A stretch of 64,000 bases of DNA, from contig CAWCRS010000005.1 in the NCBI GenBank assembly GCA_963798085.1, positions 608,001 to 672,000 of the forward strand, in the 5' to 3' direction. Under the pieces are notes generated by a model. That model searched no databases, was not told the origin of the DNA, and saw only the letters and a program-made list of their open reading frames with translations. Shown here piece after piece: positions 53,666 to 63,847 of the stretch. How positions within the stretch are numbered: position 1 is the stretch's first letter; every line of letters begins with the position of its first letter. This DNA is from an uncultured Gemmatimonadales bacterium. GTDB lineage: Bacteria > Gemmatimonadota > Gemmatimonadetes > Longimicrobiales > RSA9. Both the position numbers and the translations under genes were made by a program.

Positions 53666-56086
53666 TCATGCGATAGCCTTCGGCGGCTCCTCGTGCAGCA
53701 GGTTCCGCACGAAATAGTCCCACTGCTTGCGGATCGAGTAGTCGGGCAGGCCGTGGTTCGCATCCGGAATGACCACGAGATCGAAATCCTTGTTGGCCTT
53801 GATGAGCGCATCGACCACACGGAACGTGTTGGCCGGGTGCACGTTGTTGTCCATGTCCCCCGTCATCAGCAGCAGGTTGCCCTTGAGGTTCCCCGCCATG
53901 GTGTAGTTGGCAGAGGCCTCGTAGTTGTCTTTCCCGGTGCGCGGGTCCGTGGTGAGCAGGCCCTGGTACTTCTCGCCCCAGAAATAGCCATAGGTGCGAT
54001 TGTCGTGGTTGCCCGAGCCCGACACTGCGACCTTGAAGAAGTCGGGATAGCGGAGGATCGCGTCGGTCGAGGCGAAGCCGCCGCCGGAATGGCCGTAAAT
54101 GCCGACGCGGTCCATGTCGATCCAGCGGTAGTGCGCCGCCAGCTGCTGGATGCCCGCAATGTGATCGGGAATGCCGTTGTCGCCCATGTTGCCGTAATAG
54201 TAATCATGGAACGCCTTCGAGCGGCCCGGCGTGCCCATGTGATCGAGCTCGATGACGATGAAGCCCAGCTCGGCGAGCGCGCGCGGCTCGTTGCCGCGCG
54301 TTGAATGACCAGCTGCCCACGCTGCCGACCTGCGGGCCCGGATAGATGTGATCGAGGATCGGGTAGCTCTTCGTCGAATCGAAATCCGAAGGCTTGTACA
54401 TCAGCCCCCACAGATCGGTCACGCCGTCCCTCGCCTTGACCGTGAAGATCTCCGGCGGTGTCCAGCCGACGCGACTGGAGCAGCTCGATGTCGCCCCGCT
54501 CCAGCTCCATGATGACCTTGCCCGTATCGGCCGAGCGCAGCACGATAACAGGCGGTTTCGCCGCCGGCGCGTACGTGTCGATGAAGAAGTTCGACTTGGG
54601 GAAGAAGAACGTCTGGTGCGAGGCATCCTCCGGCGTGAGCGGCGTGAGACCGCTGCCGTCGAAGTTGATCGCGGTAGACGTGCGTGTAGTACGGCACGCC
54701 CGGCTCCTTGTCCATCGCCGAGAAGCAGATCTGTTTCGCGACACTGTCCACCTTGTCGATGCCGGTCACCGTGTAGGCGCCCGACTCCACCTGGTTCTTG
54801 AGCTTGCCATCGGCCGAGAAGCGATAGATGTGGGACCAGCCATCGCGCTCCGAAAGATAGAGCATGTCGTCGCCGCCGTTGACCACGCGGAAACCGCGCT
54901 GCTCCACCCACGTCGGGAAGGAGTCCTTCGTGATCATCGTCGTCTGGCCGGTCTTCGTGTCGATGGAGAAGAGCGGCATGCGCTTGTAGCCTCGCGACGA
55001 GCTCATCGCGAACAGGCGGTCCGCCGAGCGCGACCATTGTGCGCGGGCGAGAAGTTGATGATAGGTGACGCCGGCTGGTCCACCTTCACGGCGGCCTTGC
55101 CGATCACATCGAGCGCGTACATCGTCGAACTTCGGATACGCCGTGTCGCCCGGGGCTGCGTAGTAGTAGCTGTGGTCCACCGGATGCGTGCCGGTCGACG
55201 AGTACAGCGGATACTTGCGCACATGGCGGTAATCCAGCCGCTGCAGCACGAGCGGCGTGAGTCCGGAGACCAGGTCACGGGCGCGCGCTTCGGCTTGAAC
55301 GGCGTGGCCTCGGTCCCGCCGAACAGCGCGCCCAGGTCGTCGTCCCACGTCCCATTGCTCCTCGCCGTCCGTCGTGAGCCGCGTGGAGCCGCGCCGGCAG
55401 CGCGACCGAATCCTTGCTCGCGCCGGCCCCGCGGCTCTCGCTGTCCGCCGAGTCCTTTTTCGCGTGTCCTTCACGGCTGTCTCGCGGCGGTCAGCACCGA
55501 ATCGCGCTTCGCGATCGCTTCGTAGTCGGTCAGCTCGGCGGGCCGGACATACAGATCGCAGTCGTAGACGAACACATCCCACTTCCTGTCCGGCGAGCGT
55601 GCGCCCCAGTCGGGCCCGTTCTTCAGCGTCGCGATCCGTGCTCCAGACGATCGTGTCGACTGCTCTCGCACGCGTAAGTCGGTCGCGTTGCAGCGGAAGA
55701 CCTTTTTCCTGAGCTCGCGTCTCGATGGTCTGGCCCGTGTCCACCACCGTGAACGTCGGGAGCTTCGTCGGGTCGAGAATGGTGTCCGGCCGCGAGCGAC
55801 AGCGCCTCCGCGAGGCGAGCATTATCGAAGAGCGCCGCCGCGTGGCCCGTGCCGGGTCCACCACGTAAGTGACGCCGCGGTCATCGCGGCCCGACGAGAT
55901 GTACCAGAAGCGCAGGCTGTCTTCGAGGAACGTCGGACGGACGCTGGTACCGAATACGTAGCGCGCCGCCGTGCGAATGACATCAGCGCGATGGTAGTCC
56001 GGCGTTTGCGCCCGTGCGCCCGTCGCGGGCAGCAGCAGGACGGACAGCAGGCAGGCCGCTGAGCGGATCGGTGTGCAACGCTGCAT
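53666..56086 (-). pseudogene. S9B/DPP-IV-family dipeptidyl peptidase, multiply frameshifted
   Basis: Signal peptide at 56086; fragments RSPDRKW, SERDGW.HIY and IYPGPQ lie in different frames; intact C-terminal GHSGGG, D (DNNV) and H (NHG). Confidence 0.85.
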
Positions 56087-56405
56087 GGCAGTCTCCGATG
56101 GGATGGAGTGTTGTCGGGGGGAAGCAAAGCTGGAAGGAGCGAGCGCCGTTGTAAAGCCGGGCGTGAGGAAACACGGCCCGCCGTGGCAGTTCGCTCCATC
56201 CCTATGACACCAGGCGTCGGGCAGGCGTTGACTCCCTTTGGGCTGAACCGGGCCGCCGGCGGGTCCGAGCGTGACCTTCCAGTGTCGATGAAGCCGGCGT
56301 TCTGCAGTTCCACCGCGACGCGGATGATCTGTGTCGCGCCCCCGCTGGCGTCGGTGTCCACCCGCCCATCCAGTTTTTTCGCCCCTGCCCTGGGCACGCC
56401 GGAGC

Positions 56406-57950
56406 CTATCCGGTTCTTGCGTGGCGCCGCAGCACCGCCTTCGCGGCATTGCTGGCCTGCAGTTCTGTGTCCGCATCTGGCGGCGAAGCGCCTGCGTCCA
56501 GCAGCGCCTGCACGGTGGCTGCATAGTCGCCGGTCTCGCGGTGCCAGCCGTTCTCGGAGCCGTGCAGCGCCCAGCGCAGCGGACCGATGTGCCAGTCGTC
56601 GCTCGTGTCATTGAGCGGCGGATCGTGGCGCAGGATCTCACGCACCATCGCGACATTGCCGTGCCATGCGGCCCAGTGCAGCGGCGTGGCGTTGTGCTGG
56701 CCGCGGGCATCGGCGGGCCAGCCCGCGTCCAGCATCAGTCCGACGGCGCGCGTGTTGTTGCTTTGCGCCGCGTCGGTGACGTGTCTGCGGTCTGCCTCGT
56801 CCATGCTGCGCGCCAGGTCGGGCTGCGAGGCCAGCAGGCTGCGTGAACGGGCGTCCTCGCCCAGCTCGCAGGCGAGTGCGAACTGCAGCGCGTGCGGACT
56901 GCGCTCCATGAGCAGGCGGTACACGTCGTCGTGCCCGAAATCCCGCGCGATCGCGTGCGCCGTCTTGTGCCAGCCGAAAACCCAAATGTAGATGGTGCCG
57001 CCGCTGCGCGGGTCGCGCTTCGGGAACCAACGCTCCGAGACGGTCGTGCGGATGCAGAGGGGATCGCGATCGAGATGCCTGTGCACAAGGTCGACATCGC
57101 CCAGCGCCGCAGCCATGAGGATATCGGTACGGCAACCCTGGGCCACGAGGAAGCGCGCCACATCCTGACGGTCGCGCGCATAGTGATGCGGGTTGGTGAC
57201 GCGCAGCATGTACTGCGCGGGTGTGGATTCGTGATCGACGTCGAGCGCATCAATGTCGGCGCCGTGCTCGAGCAGAAAGCGCGCGACCTCGACGGTAGCC
57301 GCGAAATGCAGCGGCGTCTGACCGTCGCCGCCCCGGGCGTGCACGACCGCGGGAGCTTCCGCGACCCGCTGCTGCAGCCGCTCGAGCATCCCCAGCCGCG
57401 CGGCGACGTGCGCATCGATCACAGCGCCCCGCTCCACCAGCCAGGGAACCAGCTGCGGGTCGGCCACGTCGAGCAGGCCGAAGCCGCCGGCCCACCAGTC
57501 CGTGCGGCGATGGATGTCCGCACCCGCGCGCAGCAGGATTTCCATGACGGCGCGATCGCCGCGCTGCAGCGCGCCAAACAACGCGTTGCTGCCGAAGCCG
57601 TAGTCCGGCACGGGCTCGTTGATTCCCGCCCTGAGCGCGGGAAACTGCTCGAGCAGACGGGCCACCTGTGCGGCATCGCCCGCCAGCACCGCGGCGCGCA
57701 GCGCCACCGGCGCATCCAGCGACAGCGCGTCCACGTGCGCCTTGAGCGCGCTCCAGCTGGCGAAACCGTATTCACGCGCAAGGACCCGCTGTGCGTCGGC
57801 GAGTCGCGGGCGCGTCGTCGCCTGTAATGCGGTGTCAGTGGCCAGGCGGGTGCGCGCATCCGCTTCGCCGCGGCGATACGCACGCAGCAGCGCGCGCGCC
57901 TGTTTGCGCAGATGTTCGAGGCTGGGACGATCGGGCAGATGACGCGACAT
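56406..57950 (-). CDS. Ankyrin-repeat protein with N-terminal LPxRPxLExLRKQA / AREYGFASW helical domain
   Basis: GQTPLHFA and ATPLHWAAWHG ankyrin repeats; strong AGAAGGAGG RBS. Confidence 0.92.
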   Translation of the reverse strand: MSRHLPDRPSLEHLRKQARALLRAYRRGEADARTRLATDTALQATTRPRLADAQRVLAREYGFASWSALKAHVDALSLDAPVALRAAVLAGDAAQVARLLEQFPALRAGINEPVPDYGFGSNALFGALQRGDRAVMEILLRAGADIHRRTDWWAGGFGLLDVADPQLVPWLVERGAVIDAHVAARLGMLERLQQRVAEAPAVVHARGGDGQTPLHFAATVEVARFLLEHGADIDALDVDHESTPAQYMLRVTNPHHYARDRQDVARFLVAQGCRTDILMAAALGDVDLVHRHLDRDPLCIRTTVSERWFPKRDPRSGGTIYIWVFGWHKTAHAIARDFGHDDVYRLLMERSPHALQFALACELGEDARSRSLLASQPDLARSMDEADRRHVTDAAQSNNTRAVGLMLDAGWPADARGQHNATPLHWAAWHGNVAMVREILRHDPPLNDTSDDWHIGPLRWALHGSENGWHRETGDYAATVQALLDAGASPPDADTELQASNAAKAVLRRHARTG

Positions 57951-58072
57951 CAGGCCTCCTTCTTGTGCGCCCGTTTGTCCGCTGGTTCGGGCAGAAGTGA
58001 GGTCGATGCTCGCTGCGTCAGACGACAGGTGGGATGATCCCTTCCCGCGGACGGGTTGCAACCTGGCTTGCA
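57951..58072 (-). ncRNA. Candidate structured cis-regulatory 5' leader of the ankyrin gene
   Basis: Long-range pairing 58047-58055 with 57970-57982 competes with an anti-SD hairpin pairing 57988-58002 with 57955-57973; putative TTGACG-17nt-GAGATT promoter just upstream. Confidence 0.5.
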
Positions 58073-58103
58073 ACGTGCAATCTCGTAAGCACGCCTCGTT
58101 CCG

Positions 58104-59441
58104 TCAACGGGCTGCCGTCTCCGTCCATGCTGGCGCCACCGGCGCCCCGGCGCCGGCCGCTGCGTTGCGCAGCAGCTGATCGCTCTCCGTGTCCAGGTCG
58201 ACTTTCGTGATGTCAGGACGCAGGAAAAGTGAAACCGTCCAGTCGAACACGATGCGCAGGCGAGTATCCCAGCGCGGCATCTGGAACAGATAGTACGTGC
58301 GCCGCAGCCACCAGGCGAAGAAGCCGGTGACCATGAAATGGCGGAAGCGCGCCGCCGCACGCGTGCGGCCCAGCGCCACCATGGTACCCAGCATGCGGTA
58401 GACGAAGGGCGCAGGCTGCCGACCCGCTGCCACGGCGTGCACGTTGCGCGCGACCGCGCGGCCTTCGCGAATGGCGTGCTGCGCAAGCGCGGGGTACGGC
58501 TGGCCATCGGGGCCCGGCACGAAAGCGCAGTCGCCCAGCGCCCACACCTGCGGATGGCTGACACTGCGCATCGTCGCATCCGTGATGATGTGGCCTCGCC
58601 GGTGCCGCTCGACCGGGATCCCGCTGGCCGCCGTGCTGGGCGTGATGCCCGCGACCAGCACAATGGTGGCCGCATCGATCCGATCATCGCCCCAGTGCAC
58701 GCGACCCGGCTCGATGGACTGCACACGCGTGTTCGTGTGCAGCACGGCGCCCCTCTTCCGCAGCACGCGCTGCGCATAGGCCGCGAGATCCGGCGAAGAC
58801 TCGGGAATCAGACGATCGGCACCTTCGAAGAGGTGGAAGTGGACGTCGTCGTGTGCAATGTGATGGTAGTATCGCAGCACGGCATCGGTGAGCGCTGTCA
58901 GCTCACCCAGCAGTTCGACACCCACCAGCCCGCCGCCCACGACGACAACCGTGAGCAGTGCGCGCCGTCGTGCTTCATTGGTCTCGACATCGGCGCGCTC
59001 GAACTGCTCGATCAGGTGGTTGCGCAGGCGCAGTGCATCAGCCACGGTCTTGAAGGTGCCGGCGTTGCTGGAGCCGTCGATCAGGTGCGTGTTCGTCGTC
59101 GCGCCCAGCGCCACAATGAGCTGGTCGTATGCGAGCGCATCGGTGCGACCGTCGGACGCGCGCACATGCACGATCTGCCGGTCCACATCCACCTGTTCCA
59201 CGGTGGCCTCGACGAACTGCGCGCGTTTCAGGCAGGGCCGGATGGGCTGCGCGCAGTGGCGCAGCTCGAGCACGCCGGAACAGGCTTCGAAGAGCAGCGG
59301 ACTCAGCAGAAAGAAGTTGTCGCGGCTCACGAGCACGACTTCGACATCGTGCCGCCCCGCGAAACGGCGCTCGAGCTGGCGCGTGGCGGCCAGGCCGCCC
59401 ACGCCGCCACCGAGCACGACAATGCGCATGTTCTGCTTCAT
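58104..59441 (-). CDS. ndh: Type II NADH dehydrogenase-like FAD-dependent oxidoreductase
   Basis: IVVLGGGVGG, YDQLIVALG, VVVGGGLVGVE, WALGDCA and PALAQHA. Confidence 0.88.
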   Translation of the reverse strand: MKQNMRIVVLGGGVGGLAATRQLERRFAGRHDVEVVLVSRDNFFLLSPLLFEACSGVLELRHCAQPIRPCLKRAQFVEATVEQVDVDRQIVHVRASDGRTDALAYDQLIVALGATTNTHLIDGSSNAGTFKTVADALRLRNHLIEQFERADVETNEARRRALLTVVVVGGGLVGVELLGELTALTDAVLRYYHHIAHDDVHFHLFEGADRLIPESSPDLAAYAQRVLRKRGAVLHTNTRVQSIEPGRVHWGDDRIDAATIVLVAGITPSTAASGIPVERHRRGHIITDATMRSVSHPQVWALGDCAFVPGPDGQPYPALAQHAIREGRAVARNVHAVAAGRQPAPFVYRMLGTMVALGRTRAAARFRHFMVTGFFAWWLRRTYYLFQMPRWDTRLRIVFDWTVSLFLRPDITKVDLDTESDQLLRNAAAGAGAPVAPAWTETAAR

Positions 59442-61413: not shown

Positions 61414-63593
61414 TCAGTGCGCTGCCTGAGCGGCGACGGCCCCCGTCTGCTGCAGCAGGAACGTGAACTCCATGGCGGCGTCGGCAATCGCATGGCTGAT
61501 GCCGCGCCCGCCCGCATGACCCAGCCTGGGATCGTAGTGCAGGATCACGGGAAGGCCCGAGCGCGTCGCGTGCTGCAGCCGGGCCGCAAAGCGCCGCGCC
61601 TGCAGGGGCGGGACCCGCGTATCGAGGTCACCGGTCTGTATCAGGATCGCGGGGTAGTTCGTGCCATCGCGCACGTGCTGATAGGGCGAGTACTGGCTGA
61701 TGGCTGCGAACTGCTCCGGCACGCTCGCGTTCCCGTACTCGAGCAGCGCCGGCATGTTGTTGGTGCGTGTGAAGGTCCAGAAACGCACCATGTCAAGGTC
61801 CGGCAGCCCGACGTAGGCGGCGCGGAAGAGATCGGGCCGCTCCGTCAGCGCCGCGCCCATCAGCAGGCCGCCGTTGCTCACGCCGCGTATCGCCAGGTGC
61901 GCAGAACTCGTGTAGTGATTATCGACGAGGTATTCGGCGGCGGCAATGAAGTCGTCGAAAACATGCTGTTTGTTCTCCAGCCAGCCGGCACGGTGCCAGG
62001 TCTCGCCGAATTCGCCGCCACCGCGCAGCGTGGCCACAGCCCAGAATGCCACCGCGCTCCACCCACAACGCGGCCATGGGATCGAAGCGGGGCAGCAGGC
62101 TCACGTCGAACCCGCCGTAGCCGGTGAGCAGCGCCGCCCGGCTGCCGTCCATGGGGATGCCTCGCCGGTGCATGACGTACATGGGTGCTTTCGTGCCATC
62201 CTTCGAGGTGTACGTCACCTGCTCGACTTCAATGCCGGCCGTGTCGAAAGGCACGTCGGACTTCTCGTAGACGGTGCGCTGGCCGCTCGCCAGGTCGATG
62301 CGCCAGGTGATGGACGGCTGCGTGAACGCGGTGAGCGTGAGCAGCGCGGCGCCCTTCCCCGCTCCGCGGATGCTCGCCGTGGTGTGCGCCGGCACCGCCA
62401 CCTCGCCCGCCGGCATGCCATCCACGGTGTAGACCGCGATGCGGTCGCCCACATCGTGGATGTAGGTAACGTAGAGTTTGCCATCAATCACGCTGAAGCC
62501 ATCCATGGCGTCGTCGCCTTCGGGCACGATGACCTTCCAGCTGGCCGGCTCGGGATGTGCCAGGTCCACCGTGACGATGCGACCCTTCGGCGCGTCCAGC
62601 TCCGAGCGCATCCACAGCTTGCCGTCGATGAACTGCGGCGCGAACTGGGCATCAATGCCCTGCGCCACGGTAATCGTGCGGTGCTGCGCCAGGTCCTGCA
62701 CGAACACCTCGTTATTGCGCCAGCCGTGCTGCACGGTGAGGAGCCGCAGGCGGCCGCCGTCCACGTCGCTCATGTCGAGGAAATCGGTACGGCGCGTAGC
62801 CCTCGCCGAAGATCACGCTGTCGCGCTCCATGGAGGTGCCCAGCCAGTGCCGGCGGATGCGCTCGCCGTCCGTGCGCGAGCGGCGCCCGTAGTAGAGGCC
62901 GCGCCCGCTGCGGTCGAAGGAAATCGCGTTGTAGAGCGCGGGCGGCAGACTGTCGGGCAGTTCCTTGTGCGACTGCAGATCGAGAATGCGCACGGAGAAT
63001 TCGTCGCGGCCGCCATCGCGCACGCCGTACGCCAGCAGGCGCCCATCCGGTGAGAACGACTGGATGGTCAGGCTCACCGTGCCATCCGGATTGAACGAAG
63101 CGGCGTCCACCACCTTCTCGTAGTCCCCCGCGGGATCGACGGGGCCCGGTGATGCCGGCGGTTTGCGCCGGTAGATGGACGCGGTTTCGTCGCCTTTCTT
63201 CCGCAATGTGAAGTACTCCCACTCGCCCGCGCGGCGCGCCCCGCTCGCTGCGGGCACGTCCATCAGCTGGCGGAAGCGCTGCTCCAGATCGGCGCGCAGC
63301 GGCGGGTGCCCGATGATCGTGTCGGCATAGGCGTTCTGCGCGTCGATCCAGGCGCGCACCTCGGGATCGTCCTGATTCTCCAGCCAGCGGTATGGATCCT
63401 CGAAGGCGACGCCGTTGATCGTGTCGACCACCGCGACCCGCCGGCTCTCCGGCGGCGGTGGATACGGCGATCGCGCACACGCGGCAGCGACCAGCGCCGC
63501 CAGCAGTGACAGTCGGGGAAGCCGCCGCAGTGCGCTCTGTGCGGCGGCCGGCGAAGTGCGGCGTCGAGGACAGGTCGAAGACTGGCTGTACAT
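61414..63593 (-). CDS. Prolyl oligopeptidase (S9A) lipoprotein, frameshifted near 62050 and 62780
   Basis: EDPYRWLE, GYGGF, LRGGGEFG, GVSNGG, DTRV and GH spread across three frames. Confidence 0.88.
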
Positions 63594-63847
63594 GGCAGGC
63601 ACCGGTTCGAGGTCTCCGGGGAATGGCGAGCGCTGAAGATGGGGGACTCGTGCGCCGCATACCAGTCGCCCCGCGAAGTAGCGATCGAGCCGCATCGGCG
63701 GCAGAGGCAATCGGACAACTGGGGGGTGGCGCGCGGGCCGCTGCGACCGAAAGCTGTGGGCGCTCGCGCGCCGCGCCGTGGCTGCCTGACCGCGAACCGT
63801 TGCAGGGCAGCTCACTCGCGACGCGACCGGAACCGTTTGCGAAGGGG

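Follow-up and report, generated by a model that had tools for sequence, protein, structure and literature searches.

A conserved leader RNA, absent from Rfam 15, is coupled to genes for a small basic protein module across bacterial phyla

The rpsO/S15 and alpha operon/S4 leaders are pseudoknotted, and the cobalamin riboswitch has a regulatory kissing loop, L5-L13. BglG-type proteins are N-terminal RNA-binding antiterminators; BglG/LicT (CAT-PRD), with RAT RNA, and the ANTAR regulators act on transcription terminators. In the main text of PMC11109978, 'protein binding candidate' (PBC) denotes a class of 5' UTR motifs that includes ribosomal-protein leaders. The leader described here lies on the minus strand of a 64,000-nucleotide stretch of DNA from an uncultured Gemmatimonadales bacterium (the window), where it extends from approximately 58073 to 57951 between an upstream NADH dehydrogenase-like gene and the gene for a 514-residue ankyrin protein (56406..57950, minus strand, ATG at 57950). 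This protein consists of an N-terminal, basic, helical module (residues 1-77; 57720..57950, minus strand), distantly related to the N-terminal part of PF20066, followed by ankyrin repeats.

A sequence-only reading of the locus had proposed a riboswitch-like leader with two mutually exclusive folds behind a promoter TTGACG-17 nt-GAGATT. Every segment quoted in it, including the 5' hairpin, GGGAUCAUCCC, CCUCACUUCUGCCCG, GCGGAC, CGGGC and GAAGGAGG, was located where it had been placed. The putative promoter fares less evenly. Its -35 box TTGACG (58102..58107, minus strand) overlaps the TGA stop (58106-58104) of the NADH dehydrogenase-like gene, and its -10 position GAGATT (58079..58084, minus strand), TAnnnT in most homologues, is degenerate in the window. 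A consensus promoter scan finds no site, but the position of the boxes agrees with that in homologues: TAnnnT begins 26-33 nt 5' of a conserved CC in 82 of 109 leaders, with a mode of 29 that is also the distance of the window GAGATT, and TTGAC-like boxes cluster 51-53 nt before the same CC (52 in the window). Elsewhere in the window, two S9/prolyl-oligopeptidase-like genes (53666-56101 and 61414-63660, both minus strand), their family names read off the translations, each appear as several overlapping frames, read here as frameshifts or assembly errors.

Taken alone, the window leader folds no better than its shuffles (z = -1.11; 30 of 200 reach the same stability). The case for structure rests on homologues. 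A set of 123 leaders was anchored by sequence landmarks, of which 110 were kept at less than 90% identity; P3 was placed by its own pairing, in five rows complementarity served to locate the 3' strand of P2, and approximately 11 misparsed rows were kept in the covariation ranking but dropped from the pairing tests and from the energy and linker counts. The 12 best covarying of 3570 column pairs all fall in five helices, PK1, P3, P2, P4 and Pa. Only three ranked pairs reach E 0.05 against a tree-based null devised for this analysis, the argument being the ranking and not single E-values. Comparison among leaders demonstrates the helices PK1, Pa, P2, P3, P4 and P5.

The leader, all of whose parts are on the minus strand, begins with the P1 hairpin (58056..58073), UUGCAA/UUGCAA with loop GCCAGG, for which fold prediction and conservation provide the support; the GC of its 3' arm is near-invariant and the register of its 5' arm varies among leaders. 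Within the P1 loop, CAGG (58062..58065) pairs with CCUG (58026..58029) to form PK1, a 4-bp pseudoknot whose column pairs rank 1, 2, 9 and 21 of 3570 and are 84-95% paired, the own partner pairing better in 86 of 99 leaders. The 2-bp helix Pa (58045..58055), CC (58055-54) with GG (58046-45), closes the loop C-GUCCGC; its pair CC1-J2 ranks 6 and is CG in 91, GC in 7, AU in 4, UA in 2 and other in 6 of 110 leaders. Neither PK1 nor Pa figured in the sequence-only account. GUCCGC (58052-47), inside the Pa loop, is the 5' strand of P2 and covaries with GCGGAC (57977..57982), which sits in the loop capping the SD hairpin: the P2 column pairs rank 4, 7, 8 and 12 of 3570, and in a sequence-only alignment 99.1% of cells are paired, three of the six pairs showing double changes. 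Between Pa and P3 lies an unpaired GAA junction (58042..58044) whose last A is 99% conserved, making it a candidate contact site. The P3 hairpin GGGA-UCA-UCCC (58031..58041) is 99-100% paired (ranks 3, 5 and 11). A variable linker (58004..58025), 19-33 nt across 99 leaders and never shorter than 19 nt, leads to the hairpin that contains the Shine-Dalgarno sequence. Covariation and pairing tests define its 5' side, the anti-SD (5' strand of P5) and the 5' strand of P4, GCCCG (57988..58003); the 3' strand of P4, CGGGC (57969..57973), ranks 10, 14 and 23, and the Shine-Dalgarno GAAGGAGG (57955..57962) is paired in P5 according to fold prediction and pairing tests.

The hairpin hiding the Shine-Dalgarno, which the earlier reading had assigned to its OFF state, is borne out. 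It is part of the minimum-energy fold of the window leader, and anti-SD and SD are matched in sequence in all 99 leaders, each anti-SD preferring the SD region of the same leader to that of distant ones (-14.0 against -8.8 kcal/mol). Pairing takes in at least five bases of the SD window in 98 of 99 leaders, and the bases of the SD in the window leader are predicted to be paired with a probability of about 0.99. The proposed ON fold, in which GGGAUCAUCCC pairs with CCUCACUUCUGCCCG and GGAAG with CUUCU, can likewise be drawn on the window sequence, but the pairs specific to it do not covary (ranks 470-3182 of 3570; GGAAG/CUUCU 64% paired, the CCC/GGG extension 69%), GGAAG/CUUCU is at chance level in the pairing test (43 of 99), and forcing the fold costs 15 kcal/mol (-28.2 against -43.4). 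Of this fold, homologues retain only the GUCCGC/GCGGAC core; the CC that it requires covaries with a different partner, in Pa, and its small hairpin CUG.CGU/ACG.CAG falls in the non-conserved linker. Mutual exclusion of the two folds is not upheld either. A sliding test, run on 54 leaders of reduced redundancy, found no upstream segment that paired with the anti-SD or SD better in its own leader than in others, so that no conserved alternative pairing emerged, although an invariant partner or a kinetic switch would escape this test. A generic, non-covarying pairing of about -7 kcal/mol between the purine-rich junction and the anti-SD is possible as a transient state.

As GUCCGC, with 1-2 further bases, makes up the loop closed by Pa, and GCGGAC lies in the P4 loop, P2 is a loop-loop pairing, and this geometry lets it coexist with the SD hairpin. 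The paired segments stand at the 3' side of their loops, with 1-2 and mostly 3-7 unpaired nucleotides 5' of the segment. This arrangement and the length of the linker suit a docked state in which the SD hairpin is intact; from both, P2 would coexist with that hairpin, coexistence and alternation being indistinguishable by covariation. P2 is likely to form as a kissing loop between the 5' pseudoknot domain and the tip of the SD-burying hairpin. In eight copies (L196, L275, L283, L323, L330, L394, L018:1223-1358 and L050), nothing but the 5' pseudoknot domain is left or the SD hairpin is partly missing, and most have no intact module gene behind them. They are probably remnants, though a free 5' domain could serve as a decoy. 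A proteobacterial subtype (L231, L232, L233 and L235), with a longer 3' hairpin and a shorter region from SD to start, precedes ankyrin genes whose module lacks the LPxRP start.

In Rfam 15, no match at or above the gathering threshold was found in the window, where one chance match (E = 5.4) falls in a coding region, and none was found on the leaders of 20 loci of this class and of the second class described below; the earlier reading, which could match the leader to no riboswitch class known to it, agrees with this. Seventy-five leaders (from 68 of 80 genome loci fetched by their protein, the window and six paralogues) were used to build a covariance model. It gave scores of at least 61 bits at 73 of the 80 loci, most of these strong matches being training sequences, and detected partial copies at two and nothing at five. 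At these five ankyrin loci, the protein match does not include the N-terminus; for one of them there is no DNA upstream. Leaders occur in at least seven phyla as assigned from record titles: Acidobacteriota, Gemmatimonadota, Verrucomicrobiota, Armatimonadota, Actinomycetota, Planctomycetota and Pseudomonadota. In one metagenome collection, approximately 9,300 stretches are estimated to carry the core pattern, of which a sample suggests roughly four in five are real. An origin as a phage element was considered and rejected, viral contigs having given 1 of 65 and 2 of 13 real-looking pattern matches. No sequencing runs are listed as holding the leader RNA. No description of the motif was found in the literature searched, nor by term look-ups in the main texts of PMC11109978, PMC8632094 and PMC5737381 and in supplement files of PMC8632094 and PMC6429828; a prior description is possible among the hundreds of motifs in the supplements of PMC11109978 and PMC5737381. 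As judged from its conservation, the leader is a real RNA, uncatalogued and absent from Rfam 15.

The genome to which the window belongs holds six strong copies of the leader and one divergent copy, each before a gene that starts with the module. Six of the seven leader and module genes lie within 140 kb (contig C2 of G000, about 239,000-376,000), two of these clustered copies (C2:375641 and C2:326101) being broken or short as read. The presence of seven copies might be taken to indicate a non-regulatory dispersed repeat, but all six strong model matches in the genome precede module genes. A leader-peptide attenuator would be expected to hold a conserved reading frame, and no start codon is conserved in the leader (best column 15 of 110). 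These readings, together with the literal two-state model of the sequence-only account, are considered very improbable.

The leader is coupled to the module encoded behind it. Searching metagenomes for a 25-base core pattern gave 120 matches, 94 of them with the module directly downstream; 84 pass an independent filter for PK1 and P2, and 80 of these complete copies directly precede a module gene, the other four comprising three at a contig edge and one with a frameshifted module start. In the leader's own phylum, 27 of 28 loci found through the RNA (26 of 101 genomes) precede a module gene, the exception being half a motif, and across five genomes nine module genes are accompanied by nine adjacent strong RNA matches. 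Among 121 actinomycetotal genomes there are six strong matches, with the module present at all five that were checked, and two weak matches that were checked, neither with the module. Starting instead from the protein, 10 of 14 module genes in Pseudomonadota have a model match of at least 24 bits, two have a variant leader read by eye and two (L237 and L238) have none. The complete metagenomic copies precede modules fused to unrelated partners (ankyrin, beta-lactamase-like, DUF1835 and VOC domains). The leader tracks the module, not the partner domain, as seen in the VOC genes described below and in the five ankyrin loci without a match. As an adjacent leader and module are inherited together, and kin are not independent, co-occurrence in cis would alone be weak evidence. 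The coupling of RNA and module is demonstrated by comparison.

The module is a single small basic domain of about 75 residues, predicted to be a helical bundle (pLDDT 86), and is found in 10,336 protein clusters. Of 150 proteins, 147 carry it at the N-terminus, and in 130 it has a net basic composition. Where it is duplicated internally, the later copies keep the core and lose basic residues (K/R 92, 75, 99 and 71% in the first copy against 23, 32, 41 and 9%), a contrast biased by the profile having been built from N-terminal copies. A second or third, acidic copy stands behind the first in 103 of the 150 top proteins (P0023-P0172); such copies may mimic RNA or mediate dimerisation. Partners among 120 sampled proteins include ankyrin repeats, ClpN with or without a ClpX zinc finger, LRR, FliM, FliG and winged helix domains, and the leader-bearing fusions include beta-lactamase-like and DUF1835 domains. 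The flagellar switch domains FliG_C and FliM accompany the module in six of the 120 (P0035, P0041, P0057, P0074, P0082 and P0098). Fold and profile searches found no solved relative or known RNA-binding fold: Foldseek gave nothing under E 5, the VIA search a best Z of 4.0 and a PDB profile search a designed helical protein alone (E = 0.002), and the ESM Atlas returned three unnamed clusters at 0.85-0.86. The likeness of the module to a helix-turn-helix is an impression only. There is a weak match (E = 0.04) between its second half and the N-terminus of NCBIfam PRK05973, a family annotated as a DNA helicase.

A second class of leader accompanies a related family. The first part of PF20066 (Glyoxalase_8) is matched weakly by 16 of 33 modules (best E 3e-6), and the window module scores 15.4 bits against a cut-off of 23.7, making it a relative and not a member. 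All 16 inspected PF20066 gene starts carry a leader with the same core, termed class II, in which, unlike in class I, the P3 hairpin is nested within Pa and the junction reads UGGUGAA. In a sequence-only alignment of 14 class II leaders, 86% of cells pair, with a covariation score of 0.52 against 0.225 when shuffled and at most 0.205 when slid. Among genes held out from the class II model, it finds a leader before four of four genes combining module and VOC domain and none of four encoding VOC only. In 40 related genomes, a PF20066 gene and an adjacent class II leader are both present in 23 and both absent from 17. Each model misses the leaders of the other class (that of class I gives 16 bits at best on class II), so the kinship of the two rests on common topology and the related protein module. 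Three weak class II matches (24-29 bits) in coding DNA were dismissed as chance. Proteins named 'glyoxalase superfamily' through PF20066 are misnamed.

Four further leaders in the 40 related genomes precede a MATE efflux subfamily without the module, and a leader is found at all nine loci of this subfamily examined. At three (Paracoccus aminophilus pAMI4, Pararhizobium gei p2 and G771), a PF20066 gene directly follows the pump; it has no leader of its own, and in two cases stop and start overlap. Here the leader heads the operon instead of preceding the second-placed module gene. The module gene is elsewhere in the genome at five of the nine, so that all eight MATE cases checked have one in the operon or genome, the ninth locus being in Ensifer. 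A leader at the head of a module-holding operon would be predicted by autogenous control and not by inheritance as a cassette; a common small-molecule signal would fit too.

Such a signal is central to the reading of the leader as a small-molecule or ion riboswitch, in which the pseudoknot domain would bind a ligand, such as a stress or toxic compound, changing the docking and freeing the SD, with module genes and MATE pumps forming one stress regulon. The compact multi-helix fold with near-invariant junction bases, an aptamer-like conserved tertiary fold upstream of an expression platform, is what this predicts, as are leaders before MATE pumps without the module, and the VOC and beta-lactamase-like partners suggest detoxification. 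Against this, the genes downstream (ankyrin, beta-lactamase-like, DUF1835, VOC, Lon-like and others) have one protein domain in common instead of a pathway or ligand, MATE being a partial exception; VOC genes of the same family without the module have no leader, the eight checked MATE cases have a module gene in the operon or genome, and the two leader classes have different junctions. A riboswitch is regarded as unlikely. Of the original proposal, a conserved, covarying and uncatalogued translational leader that buries the SD stands, whereas a protein-bound RNA is more likely than a 'riboswitch-like' one, given that the leader tracks one protein module and not one pathway.

In the reading that is probably correct, the module represses translation by binding the RNA in its docked state. 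The two RNA domains likely dock via the kissing loop, with the ribosome-binding site buried in the SD hairpin. We infer that the module of the encoded protein binds the docked leader and keeps this hairpin shut, repressing its own gene or operon, and that unbound RNA is translated, probably by ribosomes loading before or during the opening of P5. The C-terminal partner, ankyrin repeats in the window protein, would either modulate binding or merely be dosed by the feedback, and the module would extend its control to other genes within operons and in trans, that for the MATE pump among them. The leaders before module-less MATE genes (9 of 9 loci) and the two leaderless proteobacterial module genes run against this reading, as does the failure of the searches to find a solved relative or known RNA-binding fold for the module. 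Opening P5, moreover, is predicted to cost 10.8 kcal/mol in the window and a median of 13.2 kcal/mol over 98 leaders (interquartile range 11.8-14.7) in the absence of any protein. At about 13 kcal/mol, a repressor would seem in part superfluous and the step to the ON state is not accounted for, which keeps alive both the ligand riboswitch and a reading in which the module binds but activates. In the latter, the SD hairpin is closed by default and binding, released on a signal from the C-terminal sensor, opens it in a positive feedback, after the manner of the BglG-type antiterminators. The predicted default state, strongly off, and the fusion of the module to sensor-like partners fit this, but no conserved alternative partner of the anti-SD was found and a long, loose linker could not pull P5 open on docking; activation by the module is thought quite unlikely.

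A wider proposal, advanced tentatively and with some doubt, is of a widespread, unrecognised family of one-component translational regulators, in which a portable RNA-binding module (about 10,000 clusters) is joined to sensor domains of various kinds. Each regulator would read a kissing-loop leader carried by its own mRNA, and also those at operon heads and at distant targets such as efflux pumps. The leader is a common, phylum-spanning, presumably regulatory RNA missing from Rfam, and a testable function is offered for a domain that has not been studied, including the misnamed PF20066 proteins. Binding by the module would make this a compact RNA-protein switch in two natural classes, and binding by a small molecule instead a new class of riboswitch. 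Culturable hosts exist in Paracoccus aminophilus and Methylobacterium radiotolerans.

Of the described systems, PF20066 is connected through its first part, weakly like the module, and through the class II leaders of its genes; its family name tells no function, and it is not named in the literature searched. BglG/LicT and the ANTAR regulators similarly join a small RNA-binding domain, here a putative one, to sensor domains and a cognate leader RNA, but the target here would be an SD hairpin, and in Pfam the module belongs with neither family. As in the cobalamin riboswitch, the loop of a receptor-like domain pairs with the loop of a downstream hairpin beside the ribosome-binding site; the leader differs in having no Rfam match, no B12 genes, the SD in a stem and not a loop, and another core. 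Unlike the PBC examples, it has no match in Rfam, its binder would be an unstudied module with many unrelated fusions and several paralogues per genome, and it has apparent targets in trans (MATE) and docks by a likely kissing loop on the SD hairpin. It resembles the PBC class in the two features examined: a conserved, pseudoknotted 5' UTR structure overlaps the initiation site, which it would block or bury, and with the exception of lone MATE genes it heads the gene or operon of its likely binder, encoding the same protein family (80 of 84, 23 of 23 and the operon heads).
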